64,000 bases of DNA from an uncultured bacterium (GTDB taxonomy: Bacteria > Babelota > Babeliae > Babelales > RVW-14), in NCBI GenBank assembly GCA_963759805.1, contig CAVXAT010000008.1:64001-128000 (forward strand), read 5' to 3'. The translations under genes and the position numbers were made by a program. Numbering within the stretch: the first letter of the stretch is position 1; every line of letters begins with the position of its first letter. This document shows positions 28,085 through 47,158 of the stretch, piece by piece. Below the pieces are notes generated by a model. It made no database searches, was not told the DNA's origin, and worked only from the letters and a program-made list of their open reading frames with translations.

Positions 28085-31000
28085 CTAATAACTTGGATTG
28101 TAATAGATATAACCTAAATTATCTAACCATGCACCTGACAGTAATTGAACATTCATGTCGCCGCCAACCAATCCATTGCCCAATTCGAATGAGGTTGCTT
28201 GAGTCGTGTTTCCATTAACCGTTACTTTGTTATTAAAGTAAACTGATCCATTTATTAACTGCCAGCCGCTGTCCGGTAACTGTACCGTACACTGATCAAA
28301 GTAAATTCCGGATGTCTGATCTGCCATCTTAATTAAATTACGCTCTGATAAAGTATGACGTCTGGTTAAGCCCGGGCTGTAACTGAACGTAGTGTTTTTA
28401 TCAAAATACAGTGTTGAATGCAATGCTATGTAAGATGTTCCTGTTGAGGCATAACTGAATTGATTTGTGCCTGTCACAAAAACATCATCCTGAACAAACA
28501 GTTGACCTTGTGTGAATGCATAGTCTATGTCAAAACTTGTGCTCATATTTTGCAATGTAAGTTTGCATGTTTCATCCCGCATCTCAATCGGAGTTGACCC
28601 GGCTGCCAGCAAGTTAAGATTTCTTAGCGTTAAAGTTACACCGGTGTCTACTACCAGCCTGGCTCCAGATGCAAATGAAAGATCATTATTCTGACCATCG
28701 AGCACGCCACCTGAAACAACTGTGATTGCAATATTTGTCGGCAAAGTTAAATCTCCGCCAAAAATCATTGCGTTTCCCTGCAAATCAAAATTACCCGACG
28801 ATACAACTGTTGTTTGACTTGCAAGAGTCATGTCGCTGCCCAATGTAAGTGTTCCACCTTGCAGATCAATTGGACCTGATGACATACTTTCGCCCTTCAC
28901 ATTTGTTGAACCGGTAATTGCACCAAGCACCGTAAGTGTTCCGTTATTAACAGATATGAAGTGATCACGCTCAAAATTGATCGCATTGCTGTTATCGTAA
29001 ACGAGCTCACCCGGAGCTTGATCGTAAGTTACAATATTATTGCCTGAGGAGTAAGTTTGCAGATTATAATCTCCAAGTCCTGCACCGGTGATATTTTTAA
29101 TAAGCGAACGATCTTGCCAACCAATAACAGTGTTAGGTGTCATACGAATCTTAGAATTGCTATTTGCAAGTACAAATCGCGCATCATCGTTGCTAAACAT
29201 TGTATAACCAAGAGTGTTATCGTAATTCATCAGCCCGCTGATAGAAACATTTGCACCGGATAACAACTTAACATTAAGATCCTCCGACAATCCTAAAGAA
29301 GAATTACCTAAGATAATAGAGCTGGAGAAAGGCTGTTGTTGACTATCTGCCCCCCAATTTACAGCATATGCTTTTAATACGTAATTTGGATAGCCGGGAC
29401 TTTGATCAATACATAAGACATATTTGCCATCAGGACTTAAGGCCGCTTTTGAACCAGGCAGCCCGCTGCCGCTAGTTCCAACCTCTTCTAATCCGCCAGA
29501 AGGCCCAACCCCTGTTACTTTATAAACTTTAGTAAGATTTGCAAAGGCCCAACCAACAACAACATAACGTCCATCAGGAGTCCAGCCGGCAGGTTCTAAT
29601 AATTCGCCAGTAAATATAGGCATATATCCGGTACCAAGCTCAGCAAACCCACCAGCATTCCCACCTCCTGTAAAGTTGTAAACCTTAAGAGCCGATAATG
29701 CATGCATAAGAACTTTCTTGCCATCAGGGCTCCATTGCGCTCCAGAGGTATCAAAAGTAGATTGGATAAATGCAGTAAATCCCGAACCAATTTCAGCAAG
29801 TCCACCATTTAAAGAAAGACCAGTAAATTTGAATGCCTTTAAATCCGTTTGGCTATGATCATTAGGATCTATAAATGCTACTGCTATGCTTGTACCATCA
29901 CAACTCCACGATACAAAACCAACATTAGCATTTAAACCTAAATTTACATTACCAGCAAAATCATCTTCAAAGCCACCGCTGTTGCCTGCACAGATAAATC
30001 TGAACGTTTTGACTTTGTATGATCCATCACTATTATCTGCAACACCAACAACAACATATTGAGAATCTGGACTCCAATCAATTGATGTGATCGCGCTCAA
30101 GTAGTTAATCATTCCACTGGCAACTTCCTGTAATCCACCTTGATTACCAGAACCAATAAATTTATAAGCTTTGATAACACCGGTAGAACCGGAAAGGCCA
30201 ACACCAATAACCGCCATGTACCTTCCATCCGGACTCCATTTTATTTGTGAAATAGAACTCAACGGATAAGCCATTTGACCTGATCCAATAACTGAAAGTC
30301 CACCCGTTCCAGAAGTAGCCGTAAAGCGATACGTCTGTAATCCGGAGCCTGTGTTAACAACGGCATATCTGCCATCCGCACTCCATGCAGCATATAAGAA
30401 AGCTCCGATCTGTCCTCCGGTAAATACATCAGATAATCCACCTGTTGTTGAGTTTGGACTAACAATACTTGCAATCTGGCTTGAAACCGAAACTTCATTG
30501 TCAAAAATTAACTGGCCTTTTGTTAATCTAAATCCTGTCTGAGTGGTTTGAAGCGTACAGCCATTCAGATATATTTTTGATGTCGCATCATCTAAAGTCA
30601 AAAGAGAGCTTCCAGCAAGCCCAATTGCCCCTGTTGTACATGGTTGATAATCAAAGATAGTTCCAGGGTTGAATATCAACGACCCGCCCGACATGATATA
30701 ACTTTGCGCCGCAGAGCTGTAAACAAATGAACTGGAACCGGTTACATTCATATCATTGTAAACATACATCTGTCCGCGATTTAACCAGAAATTATCTGCA
30801 AGATCAAAATTTACACTATCAAGAACTAGCTTGCTTGACAAAGAAGCTAATTGTATCGATTGATCTGCAGATCCATTGGAGGTATTTCTAAATATCAAAT
30901 TTCTCAGAGTTAAGGTAGCACCGGTGTCAACCATAATCTTAGAATCGTTTCCTAATGTCAGAGAATTACCATTGCCTTCAATGGTAGTATCATTGCCAAT

Positions 31001-33805
31001 ATGCAAGATGTTCCCATCCGGAATCGAAAAATCACCATTTAGATGAAGAGCTTTTCCATTGCCAAGAATATGACCAAAGCCAAATGAACTGGAAAGCGTT
31101 GTTCCCGAATCCATAAACAGATCATTGCTCAACGTCAAAGTTCCTGCAAGAGAAATTTGACCTGACACTTCAAGAGGAGTTCTTAGAGCAAAGGTTATAT
31201 CTGGGTAAATTGCAAAACCATTTTTATACCAAGCGAGAGCATCAATGGTGGTGTTAGTAGAATAAATTTGTTGAGTACCAAATATCTGAATATTGGTCGC
31301 AAGTTTAACAATGGCATTGCTATTGTTTATAACACGCTTATTAAGATAAACCGCTGCATTGCTGGTCTGTTTAATCCAGGAAACAATCGCATTACTGTTG
31401 TGAATTGAGAGTTCACCGGTTATCTGGTTTAAGTATATGATAGCGTTACTATTGTTTCTGATGCCAAAGAGTAATGCGTTGCTGTTGTTCTTAATTCCAT
31501 ACAATAATGCATTACTGTCGGTTCTTACTCTTGTACTCAAGTAATTTGCTGCATTGCTTGTTACTCTGAGCAAGTTACTGTTTCCTCGCTCCACACCGCT
31601 GAGCCATGCTATTGAGTTACTTGTCATTCTACTCAAATAAGCTATTGAATTACTACTCGTCCTACTTAAATATGCTATCGAGTTGCTACTCATTCTGCTT
31701 AAATATGCTTCTGAATTACTTGTCGTTCTTCGTAAATAAACTAATGCATTGCTTGTTACTCTGAGCAAGTTACTGTTACCTCGTTCGACTCCACTCAGCC
31801 ATGCTATTGAGTTACTTGTCATTCTACTCAAATAAGCTATTGAATTACTACTCGTCCTACTTAAATATGCAATAGAGTTGCTGCTCATTCTGCTTAGATA
31901 TGCCATGGAATTGCTTGTTGTTCTGTTTAGATAAACTAATGCATTGCTTGTTACTCTGAGCAAGTTACTGTTTCCTCGCTCCACACCGCTGAGCCATGCT
32001 ATTGAGTTACTTGTCATTCTACTCAGATAAGCTATTGAATTACTACTCGTCCTACTCAAATATGCAATAGAGTTACTGCTCATTCTGCTTAAATATGCTT
32101 CTGAATTACTGGTCGTCCTTCGCAAATAAACTAATCCATTACTCGTTACTCTGAGCAAGTTGCTATTCCCTCGCTCCACACCACTGAGCCATGCTATTGA
32201 GTTACTTGTCATTCTACTCAGATAAGCTATTGAATTACTACTCGTCCTACTCAGATATGCAATCGAGTTGCTGCTCATTCTGCTCAGATATGCCATGGAA
32301 TTGCTTGTTGTTCTGTTCAGGTAAGCTAACCCGTTGCTTGTTACCCTGAGCAGGTTACTGTTCCCACGCTCTATTCCATAAAGCCATGCTATTGAGTTAC
32401 TTGTCGTTCTGTTCAAATAAGTTAATGCATTACTCGTTACCCTCAAGAAGTTACTGTTTCCTCTAATAACCGGCGCCCAGTAGTTCATTGAGTTACTTGT
32501 TTGTCTTGCCCATGACATAAGTGCATTGCTGTCAGTTCTTACTCTCATACTCAAATAGTTTGCCGCATTACTTGTTACTCTGAGCAAGTTACTGTTCCCT
32601 CGCTCCACACCGCTGAGCCATGCTATTGAGTTACTTGTCATTCTACTCAGATAAGCTATTGAATTACTTGTCGTTCTACTCAAATATGCAATAGAGTTAC
32701 TGCTCATTCTGCTTAAATATGCTTCTGAATTACTGGTCGTCCTTCGCAAATAAACTAATCCATTACTCGTTACTCTGAGCAAGTTACTGTTCCCTCGCTC
32801 CACGCCACTTAGCCATGCTATCGAATTACTTGTCATTCTACTCAGATAAGCTATTGAATTACTACTCGTCCTACTCAGATATGCTATCGAGTTGCTACTC
32901 ATTCTGCTTAAATATGCTTCTGAATTACTGGTAGTTCTTCTCAGATAAACTAATGCATTACTTGTTACTCTGAGAAAGTTACTGTTCCCTCGCTCCACGC
33001 CACTTAGCCATGCTATCGAGTTACTTGTCATTCTACTCAGATAAGCTATTGAATTACTACTCGTCCTACTTAAATATGCTATCGAGTTGCTGCTCATTCT
33101 GCTTAAATATGCCATCGAATTACTTGTTGTTCTGTTTAGATAAACTAATGCATTACTTGTTATTCTGAGAAAGTTACTGTTCCCTCGCTCCACGCCACTT
33201 AGCCATGCTATCGAATTACTTGTCATTCTACTCAGATAAGCTATTGAATTACTACTCGTCCTACTTAAATATGCTATCGAGTTGCTGCTCATTCTGCTTA
33301 AATATGCCATCGAATTACTTGTTGTTCTGTTTAGATAAACTAATGCATTACTTGTTATTCTGAGAAAGTTACTGTTCCCTCGCTCCACGCCACTTAGCCA
33401 TGCTATCGAATTACTTGTCATTCTACTCAGATAAGCTATTGAATTACTACTCGTCCTACTCAGATATGCAATAGAGTTGCTGCTCATTCTGCTTAGATAT
33501 GCTTCTGAATTGCTGGTAGTTCTTCTCAGATAAACTAATGCATTACTATTTGTTCTTGCAGTTACCGTCAGTCCCACTACTGCATTACTGTTATCATAAA
33601 CAAGTTCGGCAGGAGCCGCTGCATAATTCACAATATTATTATTTAGAGTAGGCGCATATGAAACCAGGTTGTAATCTCCAAGCCCACCTCCAACTGTATT
33701 CTTGATAAGGGATCTATCATTCCATCCAACAACAGTGTTTGGGGTCATGCGAATTTCAGAAGCACTATTTTTTAGAACAAAGCTTGCATTATTATTACTG
33801 AACAT
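28085..33805 (-). CDS. Giant modular protein, C-terminal piece: connector, long SN-repeat stalk, carrier with 7-blade propeller, terminal carrier without propeller
   Basis: 1906-aa ORF; seven W(S/T)PDG-type blades; carrier motifs; the reading frame continues upstream of its ATG (LLSGANVSVDGILNYDNTLGYT-MFSNNN). Confidence 0.85.
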   Translation of the reverse strand: MFSNNNASFVLKNSASEIRMTPNTVVGWNDRSLIKNTVGGGLGDYNLVSYAPTLNNNIVNYAAAPAELVYDNSNAVVGLTVTARTNSNALVYLRRTTSNSEAYLSRMSSNSIAYLSRTSSNSIAYLSRMTSNSIAWLSGVERGNSNFLRITSNALVYLNRTTSNSMAYLSRMSSNSIAYLSRTSSNSIAYLSRMTSNSIAWLSGVERGNSNFLRITSNALVYLNRTTSNSMAYLSRMSSNSIAYLSRTSSNSIAYLSRMTSNSIAWLSGVERGNSNFLRVTSNALVYLRRTTSNSEAYLSRMSSNSIAYLSRTSSNSIAYLSRMTSNSIAWLSGVERGNSNLLRVTSNGLVYLRRTTSNSEAYLSRMSSNSIAYLSRTTSNSIAYLSRMTSNSIAWLSGVERGNSNLLRVTSNAANYLSMRVRTDSNALMSWARQTSNSMNYWAPVIRGNSNFLRVTSNALTYLNRTTSNSIAWLYGIERGNSNLLRVTSNGLAYLNRTTSNSMAYLSRMSSNSIAYLSRTSSNSIAYLSRMTSNSIAWLSGVERGNSNLLRVTSNGLVYLRRTTSNSEAYLSRMSSNSIAYLSRTSSNSIAYLSRMTSNSIAWLSGVERGNSNLLRVTSNALVYLNRTTSNSMAYLSRMSSNSIAYLSRTSSNSIAYLSRMTSNSIAWLSGVERGNSNLLRVTSNALVYLRRTTSNSEAYLSRMSSNSIAYLSRTSSNSIAYLSRMTSNSIAWLSGVERGNSNLLRVTSNAANYLSTRVRTDSNALLYGIKNNSNALLFGIRNNSNAIIYLNQITGELSIHNSNAIVSWIKQTSNAAVYLNKRVINNSNAIVKLATNIQIFGTQQIYSTNTTIDALAWYKNGFAIYPDITFALRTPLEVSGQISLAGTLTLSNDLFMDSGTTLSSSFGFGHILGNGKALHLNGDFSIPDGNILHIGNDTTIEGNGNSLTLGNDSKIMVDTGATLTLRNLIFRNTSNGSADQSIQLASLSSKLVLDSVNFDLADNFWLNRGQMYVYNDMNVTGSSSFVYSSAAQSYIMSGGSLIFNPGTIFDYQPCTTGAIGLAGSSLLTLDDATSKIYLNGCTLQTTQTGFRLTKGQLIFDNEVSVSSQIASIVSPNSTTGGLSDVFTGGQIGAFLYAAWSADGRYAVVNTGSGLQTYRFTATSGTGGLSVIGSGQMAYPLSSISQIKWSPDGRYMAVIGVGLSGSTGVIKAYKFIGSGNQGGLQEVASGMINYLSAITSIDWSPDSQYVVVGVADNSDGSYKVKTFRFICAGNSGGFEDDFAGNVNLGLNANVGFVSWSCDGTSIAVAFIDPNDHSQTDLKAFKFTGLSLNGGLAEIGSGFTAFIQSTFDTSGAQWSPDGKKVLMHALSALKVYNFTGGGNAGGFAELGTGYMPIFTGELLEPAGWTPDGRYVVVGWAFANLTKVYKVTGVGPSGGLEEVGTSGSGLPGSKAALSPDGKYVLCIDQSPGYPNYVLKAYAVNWGADSQQQPFSSSIILGNSSLGLSEDLNVKLLSGANVSISGLMNYDNTLGYTMFSNDDARFVLANSNSKIRMTPNTVIGWQDRSLIKNITGAGLGDYNLQTYSSGNNIVTYDQAPGELVYDNSNAINFERDHFISVNNGTLTVLGAITGSTNVKGESMSSGPIDLQGGTLTLGSDMTLASQTTVVSSGNFDLQGNAMIFGGDLTLPTNIAITVVSGGVLDGQNNDLSFASGARLVVDTGVTLTLRNLNLLAAGSTPIEMRDETCKLTLQNMSTSFDIDYAFTQGQLFVQDDVFVTGTNQFSYASTGTSYIALHSTLYFDKNTTFSYSPGLTRRHTLSERNLIKMADQTSGIYFDQCTVQLPDSGWQLINGSVYFNNKVTVNGNTTQATSFELGNGLVGGDMNVQLLSGAWLDNLGYIYYNPSY
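31310..33590 (-). repeat. Intragenic tandem repeat: 195-bp (65-aa) super-repeat of 11/11/11/11/14/7-aa SN units
   Basis: tccctcgctccacgccactt at 33181 and 33376 (period 195); SNALVYLNRTT SNSMAYLSRMS SNSIAYLSRTS SNSIAYLSRMT SNSIAWLSGVERGN SNLLRVT. Confidence 0.92.
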
Positions 33806-36757
33806 TGTGTAACCAAGGGTGTTGTCGTAGTTTAGAATTCCATCAACTGAAACGTTTGCACCGGAAAGTAATTTACATTAAGATCGCTTGTTTGACCTGC
33901 TGCTGAGTTACCAAATACGATTGAGTTGGACGGAACTTGGGCTGCCGTTTGAGGCCTAAATCCGGTTGGGTATACCTGCATTACTCTAGAATCTCCACAA
34001 GATGCAACATATTTTAAATCAGGAGACACGGCTAAACACCTCAGATCCATGTGAAGACTGATCAGATTGATTAATCGCAGCCCCACCGGTAAACGCATTA
34101 TAAATCAAAACCCTGCGCGTAGTACACCACCACATGCCATTACAAATTTTCCACTTGTATCCCAAGCAACAGAATAAACAATGATCCGCTATACGTAGAT
34201 ATTGCCGGCGTAATTGGATCCAATGAGGTTAAATTTTTAAAATAAAATACTTTTGCCGCACTAGTCGCAGTTCCAAATCCAGCTACAACATACATGCCAT
34301 CAGGACTCCAAGCAATTGAATATGCTATACCATTATATGATGGCGATTGAGCTATAGGTGATCCACTATTATCAAATCCAGTACCATTAAAGCTATAGAT
34401 GTTTATAGGAAGTGGTGGTGAAGCTCCACCAGCTGCACCGGCTGCAATATACTTTCCATTGGGACTCCAAGAAACTGAGTATATTGTTGCAGTATAACTA
34501 GCAGATGCAGCAAGATAATTACAACTACTACCGGTAAATCCATAAACTTGAACAGTTTGCGTTGTTACTCCTCCTGCTGCAATATATTTTCCATCAGGAC
34601 TCCATGCTACTGATTCTATTGTTCCACTATAGGATGGCGATTGAGCAATAGGTGAGCCACCATTATCAAACCCAGTGCCATTAAAACTATAGATGTTTAT
34701 TTTCTGAGTAGCTCCACCTGCAGCAATATATTTCCCATCAGGACTCCATGCTACTGATTGTATTATTCCACTGTAATTAGCAGATTCAGCAACAAGATTT
34801 AATGTCGATCCTGTAAAACTGTACACCTGAATCGTTTGCTTGCCTGATCCTCCAATAGCCACAAACCTTCCATCGGGACTCCAGACAGTGGCATAAATTA
34901 GTCCGGTGTAGCTTGGAGTCGACGTTGCAGTTGTAAGGAAACTATAAAGATCAAAAGATGCTGCGCTGGTCATAGAAACACTGTTATCTAATAATATTTG
35001 TCCTTTGGTCAGGCGCATTCCTGTAAATGTTGATTTAAGTGTTGCACCATTCAATGTAATTTTTGAGCTTGCATCATCCATCCCCAACAGATCTTTGGCT
35101 AACAAACCTGATGTACCTGTCGTAGATGGCCTGAAATCAAACGTAGTGCTTGGATTAAATTTAAAGTTGGCGCCTGACTTTATATAACTTGGCATAGTTG
35201 ATCTGTAAATAAATGCATTTGTGCCATTGATATTAACATCGTTGTATGCAAACAACTTGCCGCGATCAAAATAAAAATCATTTGCCGGAATCAGAGTTGC
35301 ATTGTCCAGCACAAGCTGACTGCGGTTTGATGCCAACTTTATTGCAGGATTACCAGGGCCATTCAAAGTACTATCAACAACAACGTTACGCAATGTCAAC
35401 GTTATTGTGTCATCTACAAAGATTTCAGAATTGGCACCAATACTTATTGTGTTACCGTTACCATCAAGCACTGCATTGTTACTAACGTGAACGATTGTAT
35501 TTGCAGGGATATTCCAGTTCGAACCAACCAAAGTATTCGGCACGCCGGAATAATTTATTAGGTTAGTTGGAATTTGGGCATTTTTTGGACTCACATCGGA
35601 GATTAAATTGTAGTCACCCAAACCGGCGTTTGAGACGTTAGAAATTATAGAACCATCTTGCCATCCAACAACAGTGTTTGGGGTCATGCGAATTTCAGAG
35701 TTGCTGTTTTTTAATACAAAGCTTGCATTGTTATTACTGAACATTGTGTAACCAAGGGTGTTGTCGTAATTTAGAATTCCATCGACTGATACGTTTGCCC
35801 CCGAAAGTAGTTGAACGCTTAAATCTGATGCTGATCCGGCAGCCGAATTGCCAAAGACAATTGAGCTGGACAGAGCTTGAGTCGATCTATCTACAACATA
35901 ATTAGTACTAAATATTTGTAGTGTACCGCTATTGTAAGTGACAAGAGCAATAAAGCGCCCATCCGGTGACCAGGACACTGAACGTGGATTACCGCTAGCA
36001 CTTGCACTGCTGCCAACCAATGTTGGGTTCCCCGACCCACTAAAGCTACATATTTGCAGTGAACTGGTGTAATCAGCAACAGCAAGATAGCGACCATCCG
36101 GTGACCAGGACACTGAATATGGTTGAGTTCCAGGATTTACACTGCCCACCAATGCTGGATTAAGACCATAGAAGCTAAATATTTGCAGAGAGTATGGAAT
36201 ACTGCCAAAACAAACAGCAATAAAGCGGCCATCCGGTGACCAGGATACTGCTTGTGGTCCAGTAGTAATAACCACACTGCCAACCAATGTCGGATTGCCG
36301 GATCCACTAAAGCTAAATATTTGCAACGTAAGGCCGGCGTTATTAACAACAGCAAGATAGCGACCATCTGGAGACCAAGATACTGAATATGGCGTAGATC
36401 CTGTACTTGCGCTACCAACCAATGCTGGGTTGCCTGATCCACTGAAGCTAAATATTTGCAGCGAAGTTGAAGAACCAACAACGGCAATAAACCGACCATC
36501 CGAGGACCATGACACTGACCTTGGGCCGCTCGTACTTACACTGCCAACAGGACTGGCGGAAGGTATGCCTCCATTGACGCTAAATATTTGCAATGTGCTA
36601 CTAGTGAAAATACCAACAGCAATAAAACGACCATCCGATGACCAGGATACCGATATTGGACCATTTCCAGTACTTACGCTACCAACCAATGTTGGATACC
36701 CCGAACCACTGAAATTAAATATTTGCAGCGAATTACCATTAAAATTAACAACCGCTG
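33806..36757 (-). CDS. Giant modular protein, middle piece (ORFs 34140-36689 and 33832-34098): propeller, connector, carrier, propeller; frameshifted at ~34080-34190 and ~33873
   Basis: Repetitive SVSWSPDGRFIAV blades, QALSSSIVFGNS closing motif, carrier domain and a second propeller whose last two blades (WDTSGKF, VSPDLKY) lie in shifted frames. Confidence 0.8.
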
Positions 36758-39700
36758 ACAGTTGCTAGCGTTGACGTCGTTGTTCCGGAGAATAGATACA
36801 CGGATAAGCTACTTGGTTGCACTAGTAACTTTTCCCTTGTTTGACCCGCTACTGCCAACTTTCTCCCGTCAGGGCTCCACTGTAACTTGTCAATTTCTCT
36901 GAATGCATTTGCAATACCGGTCCCAAGCGTAAGAATCGCACTTGTGCCCGTTGCCCTGAACGATGTTGCACTAGTCATAGTCACATTGTTACTAAGAAGC
37001 AACTGTCCATTGGTCAAACGCATGCCAGTTAGTGTTGTTTTCAATGATGCTCCGTCCAATGTCAACTTAGATGTCGCATCGCCCATCATTAAAAGATCTT
37101 TTGCCAAAAGGCCTGTCACACCGCTTGTAGCAGGTTCAAAGTAGAAGGTAGTCTTTGGATTAAATTTAAGATTTGCGCCCGACATAATTTGACTTGGAAC
37201 AGTTGAACGGTAAATAAATGAACTTGTTCCCGTAAAGTTAACATCGTTGTAACAAAACAGTTCTCCCTGATTGAAGTAAAAATCATTTACAAAGTTCAAT
37301 CTTGCATTATCAAGAACAAGTTTGCTTCTGCTTGTCGCAAGCTCTATCGGCGGATTATTTGCAAAGTTTTGATTATTACTGATTACAACGTTTCTCAAAG
37401 TCAAAGTCACATTGTCATCAACAAAAATTTGCGAATTGTTGCCAATATTTACCGTATTCCCATCACCCTCAATTATCGTGTTGGCACCAATGTGCATTAA
37501 GTTATTACTTGGAATTGCAAGATTTCCGCCCAAATGGATTGCATTGCCATTTCCATAAATCTCCCCAAATCCATAGCTGCTTGTGAACGTTGCTCCGGCC
37601 TCAAGGAACAGATCACTGCTCAATGTCAATGTGCCCCCAAGCGATATCTGCCCATTTACCGGAATTGGAGTATTCAATGCCAAAATTACACCCGGATCAA
37701 CTTGAAATCCGGCCTTGTACCAGGCAAAGTTTTGAATCGTTGCAGGATGATTATAAACTTGTTGTGTGTTAAATACTTGGACATTGTTTGAGAGATTAAT
37801 GATTGCATTGCTGCTGTTCTTGATTCCGTACAAAAACGCGTTACTGTCAGTTCTTACTCTCGTGCTCAAATAATTTGCTGCATTACTTGTTACCCTGAGC
37901 AAGTTACTGTTCCCTCGCTCCATTCCATAAAGCCATGCTATCGAGTTGCTTGTCGTTCTGTTCAGATAAATTAATGCATTGCTATTGATTCTCGTTGTTA
38001 CCGTCAGCCCCACTACCGCGTTACTGTTATCATAAACAAGCTCAGTTGGCGCCTTGGCATAGCTAACTATCTTATTAGCACCTTCATAATTTACAAGATT
38101 ATAATCACCCAAACCCTGACCGGTAGTTGTTTTGGTTAATGATCTATCACGCCAGCCAAGAACTGTGTTTGGACTCATGCGAATTTCGGAATTATTTTGA
38201 AGAATATTATTGCTGGCTTTGAGCGTAAAACACGCATTATTATTGCTAAAGATCGTATAACCCAAAGTGTTGTCGTAATTAAGTATTCCATCTACCGATA
38301 CGTTTGCACCGGAAAGTAGTTGAAGATTTAAATCATAACTTGAACCTAAAGCAGAATTACCAAACACAATTGAATTAGAGATAGCCTGAGAATTATATGC
38401 CTCTTGGCCGTATGCTACCTGCGCTAACTGAAGTTCTTGTTGCGTGCTACCTGTGACAGGCAATAATCCAGCCACAGAACCTCCAACTGCTAGATATAGA
38501 CCGTTAGGATTCAGGTCACAAGCATAAAGTGCAGTTCCATAAGAAATCTTTTTTAGAGGAACTAACGAAGATCCTGTAAATGCCATGTACAAAGTCAAAT
38601 CGCTTGAGGAACTGTCATTGCCACCCACCAGTATAAATCTTCCATCAGGGCTCCATTTTACAACTCTTGCGTTTACACCAAACGGTGCAGTTGCAACTGC
38701 ACCAAGCGTAGGTGATGCTGGATTGGCACCATTAAATGAATAAATCGTTATATCCTTAGCTGTCGCCCCAGACCCATTTTGTCCTGTTGCTGCCAAGAAA
38801 TTTCCATCAGGACTCCATGCAACGTTTGTTGCAAAAGATGCGTAACTTCTTGTTAATGACGTTGCGATCAATGCCCCGTTCCCGTTATTAAAAGAATAAA
38901 TGGCTATACTGTTGGTTGAAGAGTTTGTGGCAATCGCAATATATTTTCCACTTGGATGCCAAGAGATTCCTAGAACCTCTGAAACCCCTGAAGTTGCTGA
39001 AACTTGATTCAAAGTAGTTCCGTTGAACTGATATATCGTCAGATTTCGCATGTTGCCGCCAACTGCCAAGTAGTGCCCATCAGGACTCCAGCTTACCGGA
39101 CCTGTGTATGATGCCCTAGTCGTTCCAAGATTTGTCTGCGCAACTGTCGAAAGGGTATTATTCACAATGGAGTAAACTTGTAGGTTCGAGGTTGATACTG
39201 TTAACGATAATGGTAGGTTTACTTTTCCACCCGCCGCTATATACTGCCCATCAGGACTCCATGAAACACCTGATGACGTTACCGAAAAGGCAGTCGCTGC
39301 CAACGTTGTTGTTGTTGATCCGGAAAAGAGGTATACTGCCACGTTATTTGCTTGCGCTAGTAATTTTTCCCTCGTTTGACCCGCAACTGCCAACATTCTT
39401 CCATCAGGACTCCACTGTAATGTATCAACTTCCCTGAATGCTCTTCCTATATAATTAGGAGTGGTACCTGATTGAATTTGATATGCATAACTTGTCCCTG
39501 TAATCTGCAGTGATGCCGCACTTGTCATCGTAACTTTATTACCAAGCAGTAACTGTCCTTTGGTCAGACGCATTCCTGTCAGTGTTGTTTTAAGTGATGC
39601 TCCATCCAATGTCAACTTTGATGTCGCATCGCCCATTACAAATAAATCTTTTGCCAAAATTCCCGATGCACTCGTAGTAGACGGCGCGAAGGCAAATGTC

Positions 39701-40407
39701 GTTCCCGGATTAAATTTAAGATTTGCACCTGACATTATATAACTTGGGCTTGCAGAGCGATAAATAATTGCACTTGTACCTGTAACGTTAACATCGTTGT
39801 ATGCAAACATTTGTCCACGATCAAAGTAGAAATCATTGGATAAATTTAATCTCGCATTATCAAAAACAATCTTGCTTCTGCTCGTTGCAAGTTTTATTGG
39901 CGGATTACCTGCAAAATTTTCGGTATTATCAATTACAACGTTGCGCAATGTAAGAGTTACAGTGTCATCAATAAAAATTTGAGAATTGTTGCCGAGATTG
40001 ATCGTGTTATTATTGCCATCCAATACAGCATTTGCAGTGACGTGAATTACAGTGTTGGCAGGGATGTTCCAGTTCGAACCTATCAAAGTGTTCGGCACTC
40101 CGGGATAGTTTATGATGTTCCCTGAACTTGGATATGTTGAGTTGCCTATGTTTTTGGCATCCAACAGCAGATTATAATCACCCAAGCCGGCGTTGGAGGC
40201 GTTGGCAATTATCGAATCACTTTGCCAGCCTGAAATTGTAGTCGGCGTAAACCTTATTTGCGAATTGCTGTTTTTGAGAACAAATCTCGTAGACTCCATA
40301 TCCAATTGAAGACTGGCAAATACAAACGGATCCTGAATCAAGTTCAGGATGACAAAATAGGAGGATAGAATACGTGCTAACCAAAACCATTTACTCTGAA
40401 ACTTCAT
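36745..40407 (-). CDS. Giant modular protein, N-terminal piece: signal peptide, carrier with 7-blade propeller, connector, short stalk, second carrier, first blade of next propeller
   Basis: MKFQSKWFWLARILSSYFV.. preceded by a purine-rich RBS; seven WSPDG-type blades; ends abruptly after one blade. Confidence 0.85.
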   Translation of the reverse strand: MKFQSKWFWLARILSSYFVILNLIQDPFVFASLQLDMESTRFVLKNSNSQIRFTPTTISGWQSDSIIANASNAGLGDYNLLLDAKNIGNSTYPSSGNIINYPGVPNTLIGSNWNIPANTVIHVTANAVLDGNNNTINLGNNSQIFIDDTVTLTLRNVVIDNTENFAGNPPIKLATSRSKIVFDNARLNLSNDFYFDRGQMFAYNDVNVTGTSAIIYRSASPSYIMSGANLKFNPGTTFAFAPSTTSASGILAKDLFVMGDATSKLTLDGASLKTTLTGMRLTKGQLLLGNKVTMTSAASLQITGTSYAYQIQSGTTPNYIGRAFREVDTLQWSPDGRMLAVAGQTREKLLAQANNVAVYLFSGSTTTTLAATAFSVTSSGVSWSPDGQYIAAGGKVNLPLSLTVSTSNLQVYSIVNNTLSTVAQTNLGTTRASYTGPVSWSPDGHYLAVGGNMRNLTIYQFNGTTLNQVSATSGVSEVLGISWHPSGKYIAIATNSSTNSIAIYSFNNGNGALIATSLTRSYASFATNVAWSPDGNFLAATGQNGSGATAKDITIYSFNGANPASPTLGAVATAPFGVNARVVKWSPDGRFILVGGNDSSSSDLTLYMAFTGSSLVPLKKISYGTALYACDLNPNGLYLAVGGSVAGLLPVTGSTQQELQLAQVAYGQEAYNSQAISNSIVFGNSALGSSYDLNLQLLSGANVSVDGILNYDNTLGYTIFSNNNACFTLKASNNILQNNSEIRMSPNTVLGWRDRSLTKTTTGQGLGDYNLVNYEGANKIVSYAKAPTELVYDNSNAVVGLTVTTRINSNALIYLNRTTSNSIAWLYGMERGNSNLLRVTSNAANYLSTRVRTDSNAFLYGIKNSSNAIINLSNNVQVFNTQQVYNHPATIQNFAWYKAGFQVDPGVILALNTPIPVNGQISLGGTLTLSSDLFLEAGATFTSSYGFGEIYGNGNAIHLGGNLAIPSNNLMHIGANTIIEGDGNTVNIGNNSQIFVDDNVTLTLRNVVISNNQNFANNPPIELATSRSKLVLDNARLNFVNDFYFNQGELFCYNDVNFTGTSSFIYRSTVPSQIMSGANLKFNPKTTFYFEPATSGVTGLLAKDLLMMGDATSKLTLDGASLKTTLTGMRLTNGQLLLSNNVTMTSATSFRATGTSAILTLGTGIANAFREIDKLQWSPDGRKLAVAGQTREKLLVQPSSLSVYLFSGTTTSTLATVSGC
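40328..40353. repeat. REP hairpin inside the signal-peptide coding region
   Basis: ggatcctgaatcaagttcaggatgac, same family as the intergenic hairpins at ~15451, 27907 and 50973; encodes VILNLIQDP. Confidence 0.75.
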
Positions 40408-40470
40408 AAAACTCTCTCTTTCCATTTTTTTGTTTTTTATAACTTATCCTTCGTAATTTTGTTTAGCATC

Positions 40471-40555: not shown

Positions 40556-42647
40556 CTAACTTACACAATCGTAATTCACCATACCATCTACGGTCATCTG
40601 TGCACCGGACAACCCACGTACGCTCAAATCATAACCTGACCCCAACGCCGAGTTGCCAAAAACAATCGAGTTGGACAGGGCTTGAGTTTGTGTCTCATAG
40701 CTCCAGTGTAATGCCTGTATCTGCACCTCCTCAAATGATGGTGAATTGGCAGCATTACCGGCAATAGCCAAAAAATTGTTATCAGGACTGAATGCAATAC
40801 CACGAGCATAACTATTAGTAAGTTTAAATGTGCCAACTTGTGAAAGCGTGTTCCCCACAAGTTGAAAAACAATAGCGTTAAAATTCGCTGTTGTTGCATC
40901 TTGTCCGCAAAATGCAACGTAACGCCCGGTTTTATCCCAGGAAGCGGTGTAGCCCGAAGCGCCTGTTGTGCCTGTATAAGAAGCAACACGCACTAATGCG
41001 CTACCGGTAAAGTAATGAACCCAGAACATAGGGGCTGCATCTGTAGATGCTGCAGTTGCCAAAAATCTTCCATCCGGGCTCCAAACAATATCAGCAGCAC
41101 CAGTAAGAGTGTAACTATTCAATAAAATCAAAGAATTTCCCGTAAATTTGTATATTGCAAGCGCAGTAGATGAACCTACAGCAATGGTTTGCCCATCAGG
41201 ATTCCAAGATGCACCATAGCTAGTGCTTCCCAAATTTACTGATGCAACCACACTCCCAAGAGAGGTTCCTGTAAATGCGTAAACATTTAATTGATGTAAG
41301 CCCAAATTAGAAGCAACAGCAAGATAGCGTCCATCCGGGCTCCAACGAGCGGTCCAAGATTCAACAGGACCCGCTAAAGAAGCTACATGACGTAAGAGTT
41401 GTTCCATTAAAAGAATAAACTCTTACAAAAACCGTCCCACCGGAATCCTGTCCGGCACAGGCTAAATATCTTCCATCCGGACTCCAACTAGCCCCAAGAC
41501 AAAAATTTGACCAAGCAGTTTGAGTAATAGGGGTAAAGGATGTCCCATTAAACCCTAGAACTACAAATCTGATAGAACCTGCAGGCCCACTATCAACACC
41601 AAAAGCTATGTACTTTCCCGAAGGGTGCCAATCAACGCAAGCAGCTCTTGGCGTTGCCTGCCAGTTAGTGACAGTAGTAGAAAAGTCGACAAGCCGAAAT
41701 GCTGCGGCGCTTGTCATTGATACTTTATTATCAAACAACAATTGCCCCCGGGTTAAACGAAATCCCGTATATGTTGATTTAAGGGTGCAACCGTTTAAAT
41801 AAAGTTGGCTTGTTGGGTCAGCCATATATAATAAATCTTTTGCCAAAAGTGAAGGAGTTCCGGTTGTGCTAGGGTAAAAATCAAGCGTTGTTCCAACATC
41901 AAAGTACAGTTTTGCCCCTGAAGTTATAAAGCTTGGCTGGCATGAACTGTAAAAGAATGCTGACGTACCGGTTACAGCAACATCATTATGAACAAACATG
42001 CTGCCTTGATTAAAATAAAAATCATTGGGAAGATCAAGCTCAGCATTATCCAAACAAAGTTGGCTTCGGGAAGATGCACACTGGATGGCAGGACTCCCCG
42101 GACTGTTCAACGTCCCTTGCACAATTATATTTTTCAAAGTCAGCGTTGCACCGATATCAACAAAAAGCTGTGATCTGCCCCCAAGAATTAATTTATGCCC
42201 TTGTCCATTAAATGCAACTCTTCCCCCGACGTGAATTGTATTGCCTGCCGGAATTGTTAGATCACCTTTTAAAATTACGGCTCTATCATAACCGTACAAT
42301 CTTCCCCCCGAAGAGAACGTAACTCCATTATCCAAAGTTAAATCCGAAAGAAGAATTATAGTATTTGTGTTACGTAAATCGATTGCGCCGGAGACGGAGA
42401 TGCATGTGTCCATGTAAACAGAAGATCCATGCGCCGCAGCTGGCACAAGAGTAAACCCATTTGTCATTCTGACAAATCCAATGGCACTCTGTTGATCCCT
42501 AAAGTTATTTTGTGTTGTTGTGTACAAGATCCCGGCACGGCCAAGCAGGCTGCCTGCAAACATGTTAGAAAAATATAGTGCTGCAAGAAACACGCACTCT
42601 ATTAAAAAAAGTAATCTCAGATTTTTCTGTACTAATCTCATTTCCAT
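40556..42647 (-). CDS. Single-module carrier/7-blade beta-propeller protein, paralog 3 (+1 frameshift at ~41390)
   Basis: ORFs 41361-42647 and 40556-41407 align end to end with the intact paralog 45059-47158. Confidence 0.85.
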
Positions 42648-42801: not shown

Positions 42802-44901
42802 CTAACTTACACAGTCGTAATTCACTAAACCGTCTACAGCCATCTGCGCCCCTGATAATCCGCGGACATTCAAATCATAACTTGACCCCAACGCCGAGTT
42901 GCCAAAAACAATCGAGTTGGACAGAGCTTGAGTTTGTGTCTCATAACTCCAGTGCAATGCCTGTATCTGCACCTCCTCAAATGATGGTGAATTGGCAGCA
43001 TTACCGGCAATAGCCAAAAAATTGTTATCAGGACTGAATGCAATGCCACGAGCATAAGTTGAAGTAAAGTAAAATGTGCCAATTGGTGAAAGCGTGTTTC
43101 CCACAAGTTGAAAAACAACAGCATTATATGTAGGCGTTGTTTGATCTTGTCCTCCAAATGCCACGTAACGGCCGGTTTTATCCCAGGAAGCGGTGTAGCC
43201 CGAAGCGCCTGTTGTGCCTGTATAAGAAGCAACACGCACTAATGCGCTACCGGTAAAGTAATGAACCCAGAACATATGGATGTATTTTAGAGCAGCAGTT
43301 GCCAGAAATCTTCCATCCGGACTCCAAACAGTATCGGCAGCACCAGAAATAGTATAATTACTATGCAATTGAATCAACGACGTCCCCGTAAATTTGTATA
43401 TTCCGAGCACATTGCTATTATTAACAGCTACAGCAATAGTTTGCCCATCAGGATTCCATGAAACTCCCTGGGCAGCAAATGAGAAACTTTGGGACCCAAT
43501 AAGAACAAGAGTATTTCCGGTAAATGCATAAACAGTTAATGGGTTTGCGCTCAAATTAGAACCAACAACAAGATAACGTCCATCAGGACTCCAACGAGCG
43601 GTATATGCCATGGGGCCGAGGGTACCCGATATAGTAGCTACCTGCGTAAGAGTTGTTCCGTTAAAAGAATAAACTCTTACATAGGTATTTGATGTATCCT
43701 GCCCGGCACAGGCTAAATATCTTCCATCCGGGCTCCAATTAACCCCATAAGCATAAGCTTGCCATGATGGCAGTTTGAGTGATAGGGGTAAATGATGTTC
43801 CATTAAACCCTAGAACTACAAATCTAGGGCTGAACGCAGCCCAGCTTGAACACCAAAGGCAACATACTTTCCCGAAGGATGCCAATCAACGCAGGTAGCC
43901 ATTGTTGTTGCTTGCCAGTTAGTGACAGTAGTAGAAAAGTCGGCAAGTCGAAGGGCTGCGGCGCTTGTCATTGATACTTTATTATCAAACAACAATTGTC
44001 CCTGGGTTAAACGAAATCCGGTATAAGTGGATTTAAGGGTGCAACCGTTTAAATAAAGTTGACTTGTCGGATCAGCCATAAACAATAAATCTTTTGCCAA
44101 AAGCGAAGGGGTTCCGGTTGTGCTAGGATAAAAATCAAGTGTTGTTCCAACATCAAAGTACAGCTTTGCCCCTGAAGTTATAAAACTTGGCTGGCATGAA
44201 CTATAAAAGAATGCTGACGTGCCGGTTACAGCAACATCGTTATGAACAAACATGCTGCCTTGATTAAAATAAAAATCGTTGGGAAGCGCAAGCTCAACAT
44301 TATCCAAACAAAGTTGGCTTTTAGAAGATGCACACTGGATGGCAGGACTCCCCGGACTGTTCAATGTACCTTGCACAATTAGATTTTTCAGCGTCAGCGT
44401 AGCACCGGTATCAACAAAAAGCTGCGATCTGCCGCCCAGGATTAATTTATGCCCTTGTCCATCAATAACTATTCTATCGCCTATGTGAATAACCGTGCTC
44501 GCAGGGATTGTTAAGTCTCCATTTAAAATCAAAGCTCTGTCGTAACCATAAATAGCTCCACTGGAGGAGAATGTAACTCCATTATCCAGAATTAGGTCTG
44601 ATTGAAGAAAGATCTCGTTACCATTACGTAAATCAATCGGCCCGGAGACGGTAGTGCATAAATCCATATAAGCAATCGAAGCGCTTGAGTTCGGGACAAC
44701 AGTAAAGCCATTAGTCATTCTGACAAAACCTCTGGCATAGTCCGTGTTACGAAAAACGTAGTTGAAAGGCTGGTATGCAAAATAGCCCGGCGATCCGCCA
44801 AGACTCGCTGCAGATAAAGTTGAAAAATATAGTGCTGCAAAAAACACGTACTCTATTAAAAAAAGTAATCTCAGATTTTTCCGTACTAATCTCATTTCCA
44901 T
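42802..44901 (-). CDS. Single-module carrier/7-blade beta-propeller protein, paralog 2 (compensating frameshifts at ~43840 and ~43768)
   Basis: ORFs 43816-44901 and 42802-43803 are in the same frame; the segment between them reads RFVVLGFNGTSFTPITQTA in a shifted frame, as in the paralogs. Confidence 0.85.
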
Positions 44902-45058: not shown

Positions 45059-47158
45059 TTAACTTACACAATCGTAATTCACCATACCGTCTACGGTCAT
45101 CTGTGCACATGACAATCCGCGCACATACAAATCATAACTTGCACCCAAGGCTGAGTTGCCAAAAACTATTGAGTTGGACAGAGCTTGAGTTTGTGTCTCA
45201 TAACTCCAGTGCAATGCCTGTATCTGCACCTCCTCAAATGATGGTGAATTGGCAGCGCTACCGGCAATAGCCAGAAAATTGTTATCTGGGCTAAATGCAA
45301 TGCCACGAGCAGAAGTTGAGCTAAAGTAAAATGTACCAATTGGTAAAAGAGTGTTCCCCACAAGTTGAAAAACAACAGCGTTATATGTCGGAGTTGATTG
45401 ATCTTGCCCACTAAACGCCACATAGCGGCCAGTTTTATCCCAGGCACAAGCAGTGCCAGACCCAGTAGACGAAAGATTATAAGTAGCAACACGCACTAAT
45501 GCGCTACCGGTAAAATAATGAATCCAGCCAATAACTGCTGGTGAAGATACTACAGTAGTTGCTAAAAATCTTCCATCAGGACTCCAAGCCATATCATTAA
45601 ATTGAGAGGCGCCGAAATTGGTGTAACTATTCAATAAAACCAAAGACTTTCCCGTAAATTTGTATATTGCAAGCGTACCCCCATTATTACCTACAGCAAT
45701 GGTTTGTCCATCAGGATTCCAACATGAGCCAAAGGAAGTTCCTAATACATTCGCTGATGTAACAAAAATAAGAGAAACTCCTGTAAATGCATAAATAGCT
45801 AATTGATTTGAGCTCACATTATTAGAAACCGCAAGATAACGACCATCAGGGCTCCAACGAGCGGTCCAGGCCTCACCAGTTGATAGAGAAGCTACCTGCG
45901 TAAGAGTTGCTCCGTTAAAAGAATAAACCCTTACATCAATTAACGATGAATCCTGTCCGGCACAGGCTAAATATCTTCCATCCGGGCTCCAACTAGCCCC
46001 AAGGCAATCGTTTGACCAGGTCGCAGTTTGAGTAATAGGGGTAAATGACGTCCCATTAAACCCTAGAACTACAAATCTGATAGAGCCGGCAGGCCCACTA
46101 TCAACACCAAATGCAACATATTTTCCCGAAGGATGCCAATCGACACAAGCAGCTCTTGCTGACGCCTGCCAGTTAGTGACAGTAGTAGAAAAGTCGGCAA
46201 GTCGAAACGCTGCGGCGCTTGTCATTGATACTTTATTATCAAACAACAATAATCCCTGAGTTAAACGAAATCCGGTATATGTTGATTTAAGGGTACAACC
46301 GTTCAAATAAAGCTGACTTGTCGGATCGGACATAAACAATAAATCTTTTGCCAAAAGTGAAGGCGTTCCGGTTGTGCTAGGGTAAAAATCAAGCGTTGTT
46401 CCAACATCAAAGTACAACTTTGCCCCTGAAGTTATAAAACTTGGCTGGCATGAACTATAAAAGAATGCTGACGTGCCGGTTACAGCAACATCGTTATGAA
46501 CAAACATGCTGCCTTGATTAAAATAAAAATCGTTGGGAAGCGCAAGCTCAACATTATCCAAACAAAGTTGGCTTTTAGAAGATGCACACTGGATGGCAGG
46601 ACTCCCCGGACTGTTCAATGTACCTTGCACAATTAGATTTTTCAGCGTCAGCGTAGCACCGGTATCAACAAAAAGCTGCGATCTGCCGCCCAGGATTAAT
46701 TTATGCCCTTGTCCATCAATAACTATTCTATCGCCTATGTGAATAACCGTGCTCGCAGGGATTGTTAAGTCTCCATTTAAAATCAAAGCTCTGTCGTAAC
46801 CATAAATATTTCCACTGGAGGAGAATGTAACTCCATTATCCAGAATTAGGTCTGATTGAAGAAAGATCTCGTTACCATTACGTAAATCAATCGGCCCGGA
46901 GACGGTAGTGCATAAATCCATATAAACAGTCGAGGCATTTACGGCCGATAGAACCGTAAATCCATTAGTCATTCTGACAAAACCTCTGGCATAGTCCGTG
47001 TTACGAAAAACGTAGTTGAAAAGCTGATATTTCGCCGTACTTGTCCCATCTAGAGACGTCGAATGAAGACTGACCAAAACCAAAAATTGGGTGAAAAATA
47101 TATGTATGAAAAAAATGCGTGTTGCCCAATTTAAAATCAATCTCATTATTCTCCTCAA
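45059..47158 (-). CDS. Single-module carrier/7-blade beta-propeller protein, paralog 1 (intact)
   Basis: 699 aa; hydrophobic N-terminal signal; carrier domain; blades WHPSGKY, WSPDGRY x2, WNPDGQT, WSPDGRF, WDKTGRY, FSPDNNF; closing QALSNSIVFGNS..NYDCVS. Confidence 0.88.
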   Translation of the reverse strand: MRRIMRLILNWATRIFFIHIFFTQFLVLVSLHSTSLDGTSTAKYQLFNYVFRNTDYARGFVRMTNGFTVLSAVNASTVYMDLCTTVSGPIDLRNGNEIFLQSDLILDNGVTFSSSGNIYGYDRALILNGDLTIPASTVIHIGDRIVIDGQGHKLILGGRSQLFVDTGATLTLKNLIVQGTLNSPGSPAIQCASSKSQLCLDNVELALPNDFYFNQGSMFVHNDVAVTGTSAFFYSSCQPSFITSGAKLYFDVGTTLDFYPSTTGTPSLLAKDLLFMSDPTSQLYLNGCTLKSTYTGFRLTQGLLLFDNKVSMTSAAAFRLADFSTTVTNWQASARAACVDWHPSGKYVAFGVDSGPAGSIRFVVLGFNGTSFTPITQTATWSNDCLGASWSPDGRYLACAGQDSSLIDVRVYSFNGATLTQVASLSTGEAWTARWSPDGRYLAVSNNVSSNQLAIYAFTGVSLIFVTSANVLGTSFGSCWNPDGQTIAVGNNGGTLAIYKFTGKSLVLLNSYTNFGASQFNDMAWSPDGRFLATTVVSSPAVIGWIHYFTGSALVRVATYNLSSTGSGTACAWDKTGRYVAFSGQDQSTPTYNAVVFQLVGNTLLPIGTFYFSSTSARGIAFSPDNNFLAIAGSAANSPSFEEVQIQALHWSYETQTQALSNSIVFGNSALGASYDLYVRGLSCAQMTVDGMVNYDCVS

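Follow-up and report, generated by a model that had tools for sequence, protein, structure and literature searches.

Babeliales are a group of protist parasites, and we know of no described mechanism by which Babelota (TM6/Dependentiae) recognize and enter their protist hosts. Among described systems with related parts, phage tailspikes combine β-helices with coiled-coil necks, and the Methanosarcina surface-layer proteins, said to have been described by Jing and co-workers in 2002, reportedly hold β-propeller, PKD and β-helix domains and form an expanded family. In the available text of two sources, trimeric adhesins have stalks with a polar core and hendecads (PMC13580157), and S-layer proteins feature β-helix lattices, propellers and long stalks (bioRxiv 2024.05.28.596244). 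Ankyrin repeats are the main subject in the available parts of the Babelota host-interaction literature. The β-helix carrier family, the fusion architecture and the stalk that we report here are not described in the available portions of the literature, including PMC4776705, PMC6561590, PMC12172432 and PMC12644861, and the family is also absent from those of bioRxiv 2023.11.21.568195, bioRxiv 2024.05.28.596244 and PMC13580157.

Results

Architecture of the locus

We analysed a 64,000-nucleotide stretch of contig CAVXAT010000008.1 from an uncultured Babelota bacterium (the window). On its minus strand, positions 40407-28085 hold three ORFs of 1226, 849 and 1906 aa, which are almost certainly pieces of one head-to-tail multi-module gene by ancestry (Table 1). 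The initial annotation had proposed such a gene, of ~12.3 kb with five carriers and four propellers, and our module count agrees: five carriers and four seven-bladed propellers were counted across the locus, and the six in-frame pieces summed from the break coordinates come to 4,106 codons, against an earlier estimate of ~4,100 aa. The junction motif that it had counted four times was located at four ends of T, the terminal rungs of a module (38280, 35771, 33832 and 29227), with an N-cap motif next each time. None of the long pieces is interrupted by an in-frame nonsense codon. The start of the second ORF falls within a propeller and that of the third is the Met of an internal junction, and a purine-rich stretch was seen by eye upstream of the ATG at 40407 and not before the starts at 36689 and 33805, in keeping with the earlier claim that only the first piece has a ribosome-binding site and a signal peptide. 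A palindromic repeat breaks up the h-region of this probable signal peptide, itself judged by eye.

Elsewhere in the same genome, an unbroken 3,901-codon paralog (G000:C1:236447-248152; hereafter C1) holds four propeller modules, a stalk and a terminal carrier, and reads through the same junctions. Intact multi-module frames were also found in G003 (1,767 aa), G015 (1,670 aa) and P0122-P0125 (2,238-2,738 aa), and the T-to-N-cap junction is common to P0122-P0125 and G003. Because of this intact paralog and these intact fusions, we take the one-gene architecture to be real. No syntenic copy was found when orthologous loci were compared in G002 and G003; there the flanking genes tsaD and gyrB lie on different contigs, and the gene neighbours beside tsaD in G002 and beside gyrB in G003 differ from those of this locus.

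By sequence kinship, the three-ORF gene is a mosaic of the C1 paralog and a second fusion paralog, C4. In a careful 17-row carrier tree, from which three divergent terminal modules were left out, the module 2 carrier groups with C1 modules 2 and 4 (100/99); a quick 96-row tree is cited for strongly supported pairs only. The module 4 carrier has the same opening rungs as the stand-alone paralogs, and module 5 shares 70% identity with the terminal piece of the 1,767-aa G003 fusion. The initial annotation's idea that the gene is a covalent version of an assembly built non-covalently by single-module paralogs is not supported in that form: the neighbouring single-module paralogs lack the N-cap, whereas the fused junction uses it. 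They do stop where the fused gene was said to continue, although two of the three adjoining copies are themselves frameshifted.

Table 1 Features of the three-ORF gene and of related genes in the window
Feature	Position	Strand	Remarks
Start ATG 40407 and probable Sec signal peptide	40315..40407	-	signal peptide by eye
Short palindromic repeat, in frame within the signal-peptide region	~40328-40363	-	33 blastn-short matches in genome
Module 1: N-cap, β-helix carrier, inserted 7-bladed WD40 propeller, T	38263..40314	-	carrier groups with C1 module 1 (99/96)
Module 1 propeller blades; terminal rungs T	39414-38514; ~38400-38266	-	
Module 2, 5' part: N-cap, short Ser/Asn-repeat stalk, carrier, one type-A blade	36755..38262	-	
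Break 1: out-of-frame chimeric junction, 2-bp microhomology	36754..36755	-	~1.9 kb (one module) most likely lost
Type-B propeller (first blade truncated, six whole) and T	35760..36754	-	
Module 3: N-cap, carrier, 7-bladed propeller (34883-34029), T	33820..35759	-	four frame changes inside
Module 4 N-cap (junction 3)	33608..33819	-	
Ser/Asn repeat stalk, 768 residues	31304..33607	-	likely hendecad coiled coil
Module 4 carrier, 7-bladed propeller (30385-29440), T	29213..31303	-	
Module 5: N-cap, propeller-less carrier, T, stop	28085..29212	-	no barrel or YadA anchor
Single-module paralog	40556..42647	-	one frame change (one extra base)
Single-module paralog	42802..44901	-	two frame changes
Single-module paralog, 699 aa: carrier, propeller, T	45059..47158	-	intact
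Ser/Asn stalk and propeller-less terminal carrier, 844 aa	9436..11970	+	further family member

Spread of the carrier family

Carriers form a multicopy family in Babelota that has no name, and neither they nor the fusion and the stalk are named in Pfam or NCBIfam. The family was found in 66 of the 201 Babelota genomes searched, with no match in the other 135, and is present in all 22 genomes of its own taxonomic family; several families have many copies per genome, and at 50% identity the family comprises 2,273 clusters. Among 147 top-scoring relatives, a ranking that favors multi-domain proteins, 125 have at least two carriers, 33 of these with propellers and 92 without. Single-module relatives are filed in databases as 'WD40 repeat domain-containing protein' (Dependentiae/Babeliales). 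NCBIfam matched the carrier in none of four proteins, a PDB sequence search with the carrier returned nothing significant, and Pfam gave only weak β-helix hints, among them weak matches to the pectate-lyase-like adhesive domain PF20585 in 5 of 51 carriers (best E 3e-4). The best ESM Atlas scores with the carrier, 0.84 and 0.86, are leads only.

Predicted structure of carrier, propeller and stalk

AlphaFold2 modelled the intact single-module paralog with high confidence (pLDDT 92.1, pTM 0.92). Residues 286-620 of this model match the WD40 structure 2ymu (Z 40.3, rmsd 1.7, 286 aligned) and 5yzv (Z 39.2), and each propeller of the locus shows seven blade motifs with Pfam WD40 matches. The propeller is thus predicted to be a seven-bladed WD40 domain inserted before T in a β-helix module, and the multivalent fibre with different propellers imagined in the initial annotation is consistent with the AlphaFold2 models.

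In the models, T joins its own carrier in cis (pLDDT about 95), and it also ends propeller-less and stand-alone modules. T is thus predicted to form the last rungs of the module's own right-handed β-helix, and its reading as a linker, or 'connector', was rejected. The same observations speak against the earlier suggestion of strand complementation by the connector; the connector-carrier packing model that had been called for places T in cis, which argues against a donor strand.

The junction itself was modelled on a propeller-less carrier-T-N-cap stretch of a G030 homolog (pLDDT 89.3, pTM 0.88) from another family, 35-37% identical to the window's rows, with an alignment (A7) that placed this homolog first, included the window's four junctions and held ~13 rows over the N-cap part. 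Against single continuous β-helices, 265-277 of the 306 residues of this model could be aligned, with Z 16.1 and rmsd 5.3 for pertactin and Z 15.5 and rmsd 4.1 for Fap2. Carrier and T together could supply only ~235 residues, fewer than were aligned. Carrier, T and the next N-cap are accordingly predicted, from this model, to form one continuous right-handed β-helix. Foldseek gave no match at E ≤ 0.001. In the list for the G030 model, adhesins, phage tailspikes and glycan lyases match the β-helix about equally well, so that adhesion cannot be read from the fold. Invariant positions in the carrier hold Gly, Asn or Thr, and no acidic catalytic set is invariant.

The 768-residue segment of module 4 consists of 11-residue units in 65-residue super-repeats, with periods of 3.6 and 10.9 and a single Pro, and it is likely a hendecad coiled-coil stalk. 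A region mostly within the stalk is 93% identical in DNA to the C1 paralog over 1,367 nt. The stalk would be an oligomeric, probably trimeric, coiled coil ~115 nm long; stalk and fibre lengths were computed from standard rise values. Pfam CUB and GP4 matches on the stalk were set aside as low-complexity noise, with no significant single stretch.

Break 1 and the clustered frame changes

The initial annotation attributed the separation of the pieces to small slips. The frame change that it placed at ~33873 was confirmed and falls at 33872-33873 between DLNV and LLSGANVS; the shifted frames of blades 6-7 of propeller 3 were confirmed too, the breaks lying near 34184, 34124 and 34031. Small slips alone do not account for the break between the first and second ORFs at 36754-36755, which the initial annotation left unexplained: it is a chimeric junction and not a one-base slip. 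Upstream DNA aligns without gaps, at 88.6% identity, with C1 module 4, which is of type A; downstream DNA tracks blade 1 of the C4 paralog's type-B propeller. Only 2 bases are common to both sides, and the junction is out of register with the repeats. Here a lone type-A blade is followed by seven type-B blades, of which the first is truncated, and so a single base cannot restore a normal module. Carrier type and propeller type also mismatch (17-row carrier tree; AU p 0.0045), and the equivalent distance in the C4 paralog is 1,887 nt. Most simply, break 1 is most likely the loss of about 1.9 kb, one module; the missing module was probably lost in reality or by misassembly, and we lean toward a real loss. 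With a module most likely missing at break 1, either a genuine pseudogene or a longer gene of six carriers may underlie this locus.

The four small breaks in module 3 lie inside ~320 bp of the 12.3-kb gene (P 7.5e-5 under uniform placement). We counted 15 frame changes in 322 conserved genes of this assembly, as compared to 2 in 333 for G003; because the frameshifted genes include gyrA, atpH and secF, the four shifts may be errors too, and one conserved gene has three frame changes within ~1.1 kb. We rather favor consensus errors for these four shifts. However, 11 of the 13 interpretable cases genome-wide are one-base insertions and 2 are deletions, whereas three of the four clustered breaks resemble 1-base losses, and natural decay would also fit. 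By hand count, frame changes affect 6 of this genome's 15 family members, and a transposase-like ORF splits the C4 fusion paralog; natural inactivation therefore does occur.

That the three-ORF copy is a real pseudogene, formed by a deletion at 36754 and later small deletions while the C1 paralog does the job, is marginally favored. The microhomology junction out of register with the repeats, the disagreement of carrier and propeller types, the loss-like breaks in an assembly whose errors are mostly insertions and the split C4 paralog all point this way, but the small breaks are clustered within 313 bp and not scattered, the long pieces are free of in-frame nonsense codons, and essential genes are frameshifted in the same assembly. 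Production of the full-length protein from this locus is somewhat doubtful. The pseudogene reading concerns the state of the locus and is compatible with a fibre architecture.

Anchor and export

A profile search found no C-terminal autotransporter barrel (PF03797) in the three-ORF gene, and the sole match in the genome, which is 88.7% complete, lies at C4:87418-88167. The YadA anchor (PF03895) was found neither in the gene nor in the 88.7% complete genome, and an E. coli control matched. The first ORF and the carriers gave no Pfam match to a TPS secretion domain, no TpsB gene lies beside the locus, and a genome-wide search with PF03865 (ShlB) gave zero matches, as did its controls. The genome has three secretins.

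Discussion

We propose, with a probability of roughly 0.6, that the fusion gene encodes an exported adhesin-like fibre of β-helix modules with WD40 inserts and no known anchor. On the basis of the models, the protein would be exported by Sec and its modules would stack as a right-handed β-helix rod, each carrying a different WD40 propeller near its end, with coiled-coil stalks likely separating rod segments. The whole fibre would be roughly 150-170 nm long and would likely present several binding surfaces to the protist host, in an adhesin or host-contact role. Such genes could have arisen when tandem N-cap-type genes fused at their natural C-terminus and were then shuffled between paralogs.

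The proteins might instead be secreted effectors whose eukaryote-like WD40 propellers bind host proteins inside the protist, with the β-helix as carrier or spacer. The available text of PMC4776705 mentions WD40 genes in TM6 and proposes that their domains act on host processes, that of PMC6561590 has C. destructans secreting many proteins via Sec, and the missing anchor and three secretins would fit. However, a 4,000-residue rod, a stalk of ~115 nm and tandem paralog arrays would suit a surface fibre better, and the propeller is absent from 92 of the 125 multi-carrier relatives; we consider effectors unlikely. Less likely still, the modules could be structural proteins of the envelope, a coat or periplasmic lattice that propellers and stalks decorate or space. 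A large multicopy family in 22 of 22 own-family genomes is consistent with such a lattice, as are the S-layer features cited above (bioRxiv 2024.05.28.596244), but propeller diversity is high and shuffled in mosaic fashion, 135 of the 201 phylum genomes searched lack a match, and the available text of that source does not mention the Babelota phylum. There is a slight chance that the β-helix is a glycan-binding or -cutting domain, like those of tailspikes or pectate lyases, that digests host or cyst polysaccharide: tailspikes and lyases score as high as adhesins among the structural matches (Z 13-16) and the PF20585 matches point the same way, but the invariant Gly, Asn and Thr columns fit structural stacks and not an acidic catalytic set, and no solved enzyme was matched by sequence. 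Finally, three separate genes, each translated independently, are annotated as frames with start codons, but ORFs 2 and 3 have neither purine-rich leader nor signal peptide, and the read-through of the same junctions in the C1 paralog largely refutes this very improbable reading.

Within the fibre reading, a more speculative and rather unlikely idea is that these proteins form a surface filament class of the Babelota's own. Modules would stack via their terminal rungs and carry interchangeable propellers, tandem single-module genes would polymerise into mixed fibres, and fused genes would be a pre-polymerised form that recombination among paralogs reshuffles to vary host recognition, with no barrel, anchor or chaperone-usher of known type. 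The locus in any case reveals a large unnamed family filed as 'WD40 protein' or hypothetical. The predicted continuous β-helix with plug-in propellers, coiled-coil spacers and no known anchor makes it a candidate host-contact apparatus of the Babelota, and a fibre without a known anchor raises the question of its export. For further study the intact C1 paralog is preferable to the three-ORF copy, which is broken as assembled here.

The type Va autotransporter adhesins (pertactin 2iou, UpaB 6bea, Fap2 9qe7, Ag43 and TibA) share the long right-handed β-helix and a signal peptide, probable here, with structural matches of Z 15.5-16.1 over 260-277 residues (pertactin, UpaB, Fap2) at 6-10% sequence identity; unlike them, the gene described here has no C-terminal barrel, and has repeated modules of ~330 residues, WD40 inserts and coiled-coil-like stalks. 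Trimeric autotransporter adhesins of the YadA/UspA/BadA class are long mosaic fibres with polar-core coiled-coil stalks that include hendecads (PMC13580157, available text), to which the periods of 3.6 and 10.9 in the putative stalk may correspond, whereas here there is no YadA anchor and no Pfam match to the class, the heads are β-helix and WD40, and a trimer is only probable. TpsA adhesins (EtpA 8vba, HMW1 2odl, FHA; Z 12.9-13.0) are, like the predicted protein, large exported β-helices without a barrel of their own, but no TPS domain match or adjoining TpsB gene was found here. In donor-strand-complemented pili a terminal segment completes the next subunit in trans, whereas T is modelled in cis. 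The generic 'WD40' proteins of Dependentiae/Babeliales are the single-module relatives, in which carrier, fusion and stalk are unnamed. Phage tailspikes and polysaccharide lyases (6c72, 5w6p, PL6) belong to the same fold class with Z 13-16, whereas this is a chromosomal multigene family with probable signal peptides, propeller inserts and no invariant catalytic residues. Methanosarcina surface-layer proteins similarly combine propeller and β-helix in large surface proteins, but there YVTN propellers and PKD domains are said to stand in series, whereas here, with no PKD match, the WD40 propeller is predicted to be inserted into the helix itself.

One gene of five carrier modules

The window covers positions 64001-128000 of contig C8 in the genome under study (1.50 Mb in 21 contigs, 88.7% complete), which belongs to the Babelota (TM6), described in passages of PMC4776705 and PMC6561590 as a protist-parasite group, and the named sources of homologs of the gene family were Babeliales, Dependentiae and TM6. 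The initial annotation had read three ORFs as probably one gene with five carriers (the predicted beta-helix part of each module) and four propellers. Motif mapping bore out this composition, counted seven blades in each propeller and placed four junctions in the gene, at each of which the predicted terminal beta-helix rungs of one module (T) run into the segment opening the next (N-cap); by their coordinates, the in-frame pieces sum to 4,106 codons. That the ORFs form one gene was further borne out by an unbroken 3,901-codon paralog on contig C1, in which a Ser/Asn stalk and a terminal carrier accompany four propeller modules; three single-module genes precede it, as in the window. Unbroken fusions are present too in G003, a genome of the same genus (1,767 aa, the terminal piece 70% identical to the window's), in genome G015 and in database proteins P0122-P0125. 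The paralog on contig C4 keeps a 2,259-codon frame with three junctions, its 5' end being cut off by a transposase-like ORF. The window's four junctions match those of C1, C4, G003 and a further genome, G030, column for column. Because intact relatives exist and the junctions align, the fusion is genuine and not the product of frame errors.

Smaller features accompany these loci. The repeat in the probable signal peptide resembles the RPE kind of in-frame palindromic element of Rickettsia, and the duplicated stop motif before the gene is possibly a tandem duplication or deletion scar.

Table. Features of the gene, its window and related loci (positions are of the window unless a contig is named)
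Feature	Location	Strand	Remarks
Three ORFs, 1226 / 849 / 1906 aa	40425-28085	minus	
Palindromic repeat in probable signal peptide	40328-40363	minus	Short, in frame; 33 blastn-short matches in genome
Second NYDCVS stop motif	~40460-40500		Directly before start of fused gene; short duplicate of upstream paralog's end
Break 1	36754		Between ORF 1 and ORF 2
Four small breaks	~34184, 34124, 34031, 33873		
Stalk	33607-31304		
GC-rich element, ~106 bp	42680-42800; ~44937-45042		Identical copies between single-module paralogs; 32-bp core in three copies at 149-bp spacing on contig C14
secF (by inspection)	23507-24420	plus	Split by one-base insertion near 23866 vs G003; probably an assembly error
Probable AAA-ATPase genes (by eye)	3817-5493		Near the window's 844-aa family member
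Probable AAA-ATPase genes (by eye)	C1:228409-230040; 248287-249519		Flank the C1 array
Unbroken fusion paralog	C1:236447-248152		
Alanyl-tRNA synthetase-like frame	C1:249577-252000		In-frame low-complexity insertion, palindromic-element-like by eye
Transposase-like ORF (by inspection only)	C4:82288-83370 (locus L112)		Interrupts first carrier of C4 fusion, leaving a 164-codon head and the remainder
Single carriers with tandem propellers	C5:110973-114689; loci L097, L102, L104 (genomes G001-G003)		

Module fold, junction and stalk

AlphaFold2 predicted an intact single-module neighbour (667 residues, 103 alignment rows) to be nearly all beta (pLDDT 92.1, pTM 0.92), and residues 286-620 of the model are a seven-bladed WD40 propeller (Z 40.3, rmsd 1.7). 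T also closes modules that lack a propeller, both module 5 of the window's gene and natural propeller-less genes, which indicates that the propeller is an insert and that T is part of the carrier. A second model covered 306 residues from G030, in which carrier, T and N-cap follow one another naturally without a propeller (81-row alignment with the window's junctions among the rows); it reached pLDDT 89.3 and pTM 0.88, with local pLDDT of ~95 in T and 79-91 in the N-cap. This G030 model superposed on single right-handed beta-helices over 265-277 residues, with matches to pertactin (Z 16.1), SRRP (15.8), tailspike 6c72 (15.8), UpaB (15.5) and Fap2 (15.5). Because this length exceeds the ~235 residues of carrier and T together, the homolog model predicts that the next N-cap extends the same beta-helix across the junction. 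In this prediction, simple in-cis continuation of the helix replaces the strand complementation that had been suggested for the "connector". The neighbouring single-module genes open with other rungs and have no N-cap. An N-cap is present in some stand-alone genes, including one in G003 that is sister to a fused module (84/78, moderate support), suggesting that tandem genes of the N-cap type gave rise to the fusions by linkage at their natural C-terminus.

The stalk comprises 768 residues in 11-residue units grouped in 65-residue super-repeats, with dominant periods of 3.6 and 10.9. It contains a single proline, and this pattern points to a likely hendecad coiled coil whose core has polar layers. 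At the coiled-coil rise of 0.15 nm per residue it would be ~115 nm long, and the protein is likely oligomeric, since the stalk helix needs partner helices. The carrier after the stalk restarts with first rungs that stand-alone genes also have, which indicates that stalks lie between rod segments.

Frame breaks

The DNA upstream of break 1 tracks module 4 of the C1 paralog (88.6% over 719 nt, gapless) to the point where the first type-A blade ends, and the downstream DNA tracks the opening blade of the type-B propeller of C4, the two sides overlapping by two bases. After the break come seven type-B blades, of which the first is truncated. A carrier tree of 17 rows, built without three terminal modules, placed the carrier preceding the break with C1 type-A carriers (support 100/99), and a clade uniting it with C4 carriers, which normally stand before type-B propellers, was rejected (p-AU 0.0045). 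In C4 the corresponding distance measures 1,887 nt. Most simply, these sequences read as a gene of six carriers and five propellers (~4,700 residues) that has lost one module; alternatively, an in-frame chimera may have formed first and then lost ~50 nt. We lean towards break 1 being real.

The initial annotation was right about the frame change at 33873 and about the propeller blades in shifted frames. Three of the four small breaks resemble one-base losses beside A or G runs; that at 34031 is ambiguous. Uniform decay is an unlikely cause, since all four fall within 320 bp (P 7.5e-5 under uniform placement). The assembly is noisy, as imperfectly polished long reads would be: mapping G003 proteins on it revealed 15 frame changes across 364 kb and 322 conserved genes, and the reverse mapping revealed 2 in 333, in a comparison that covered ~835 kb of the 1.5-Mb G003 genome. 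Among the genes hit, by inspection, are gyrA, secF and that for the ATP synthase delta subunit; one gene is interrupted three times in ~1.1 kb. Two observations count against assembly error in the cluster: 11 of 13 interpretable frame changes genome-wide are insertions, whereas the clustered breaks look like losses, and family genes are more often frameshifted here (6 of 15, by hand count) than in relatives (of 115 listed frames, 3 are split with no N gap to account for it). Even so, we consider the cluster of four probably an error.

Family distribution

The carrier profile matched 66 of 201 phylum genomes searched, commonly in many copies each, and 22 of 22 genomes of its own family; several families of the phylum had no match in this search. 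It found 2,273 clusters at 50% identity, which may extend beyond the phylum. NCBIfam, Pfam and a PDB sequence search gave the carrier no name. Two to nine carriers, spaced mostly 380-450 residues apart, were present in 125 of 147 top-ranked proteins, a ranking that favours repeats, and 33 of the 125 had propellers. By these counts the family often repeats its carriers head to tail, and the form with propellers and a stalk is one variant. A second route to multivalency is taken by proteins of 1,240-2,110 aa in which one carrier bears two to four consecutive propellers ahead of T. Among P0126-P0133 and P0179-P0296 we also observed giant relatives (2,700-4,700 aa) with many propellers and one, mostly C-terminal, carrier, and propeller-free chains of 3-9 carriers spaced mostly ~413 residues apart.

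Discussion

The observations of the initial annotation largely hold, as does part of its interpretation. The protein would most likely be exported by Sec and then cross the outer membrane by some further route; the genome has three secretins. It would then most likely form a fibre projecting from the cell surface, with propellers of several binding specificities, presumably for the host, and paralog recombination would reshuffle them, as the mosaic of C1- and C4-like parts suggests. Rival readings would make it a secreted effector, an envelope lattice or a glycan-active protein.

No description of the family was found in the literature covered, and within that scope the fusion is a real, undescribed variant. 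We do not file it under types Va, Vb or Vc, from which it differs: no barrel, YadA anchor or TPS domain was found in the gene. It would work like the beta-helical adhesins, and its predicted stalk has features in common with trimeric adhesins, in whose stalks a passage of PMC13580157 describes hendecads with polar core layers.
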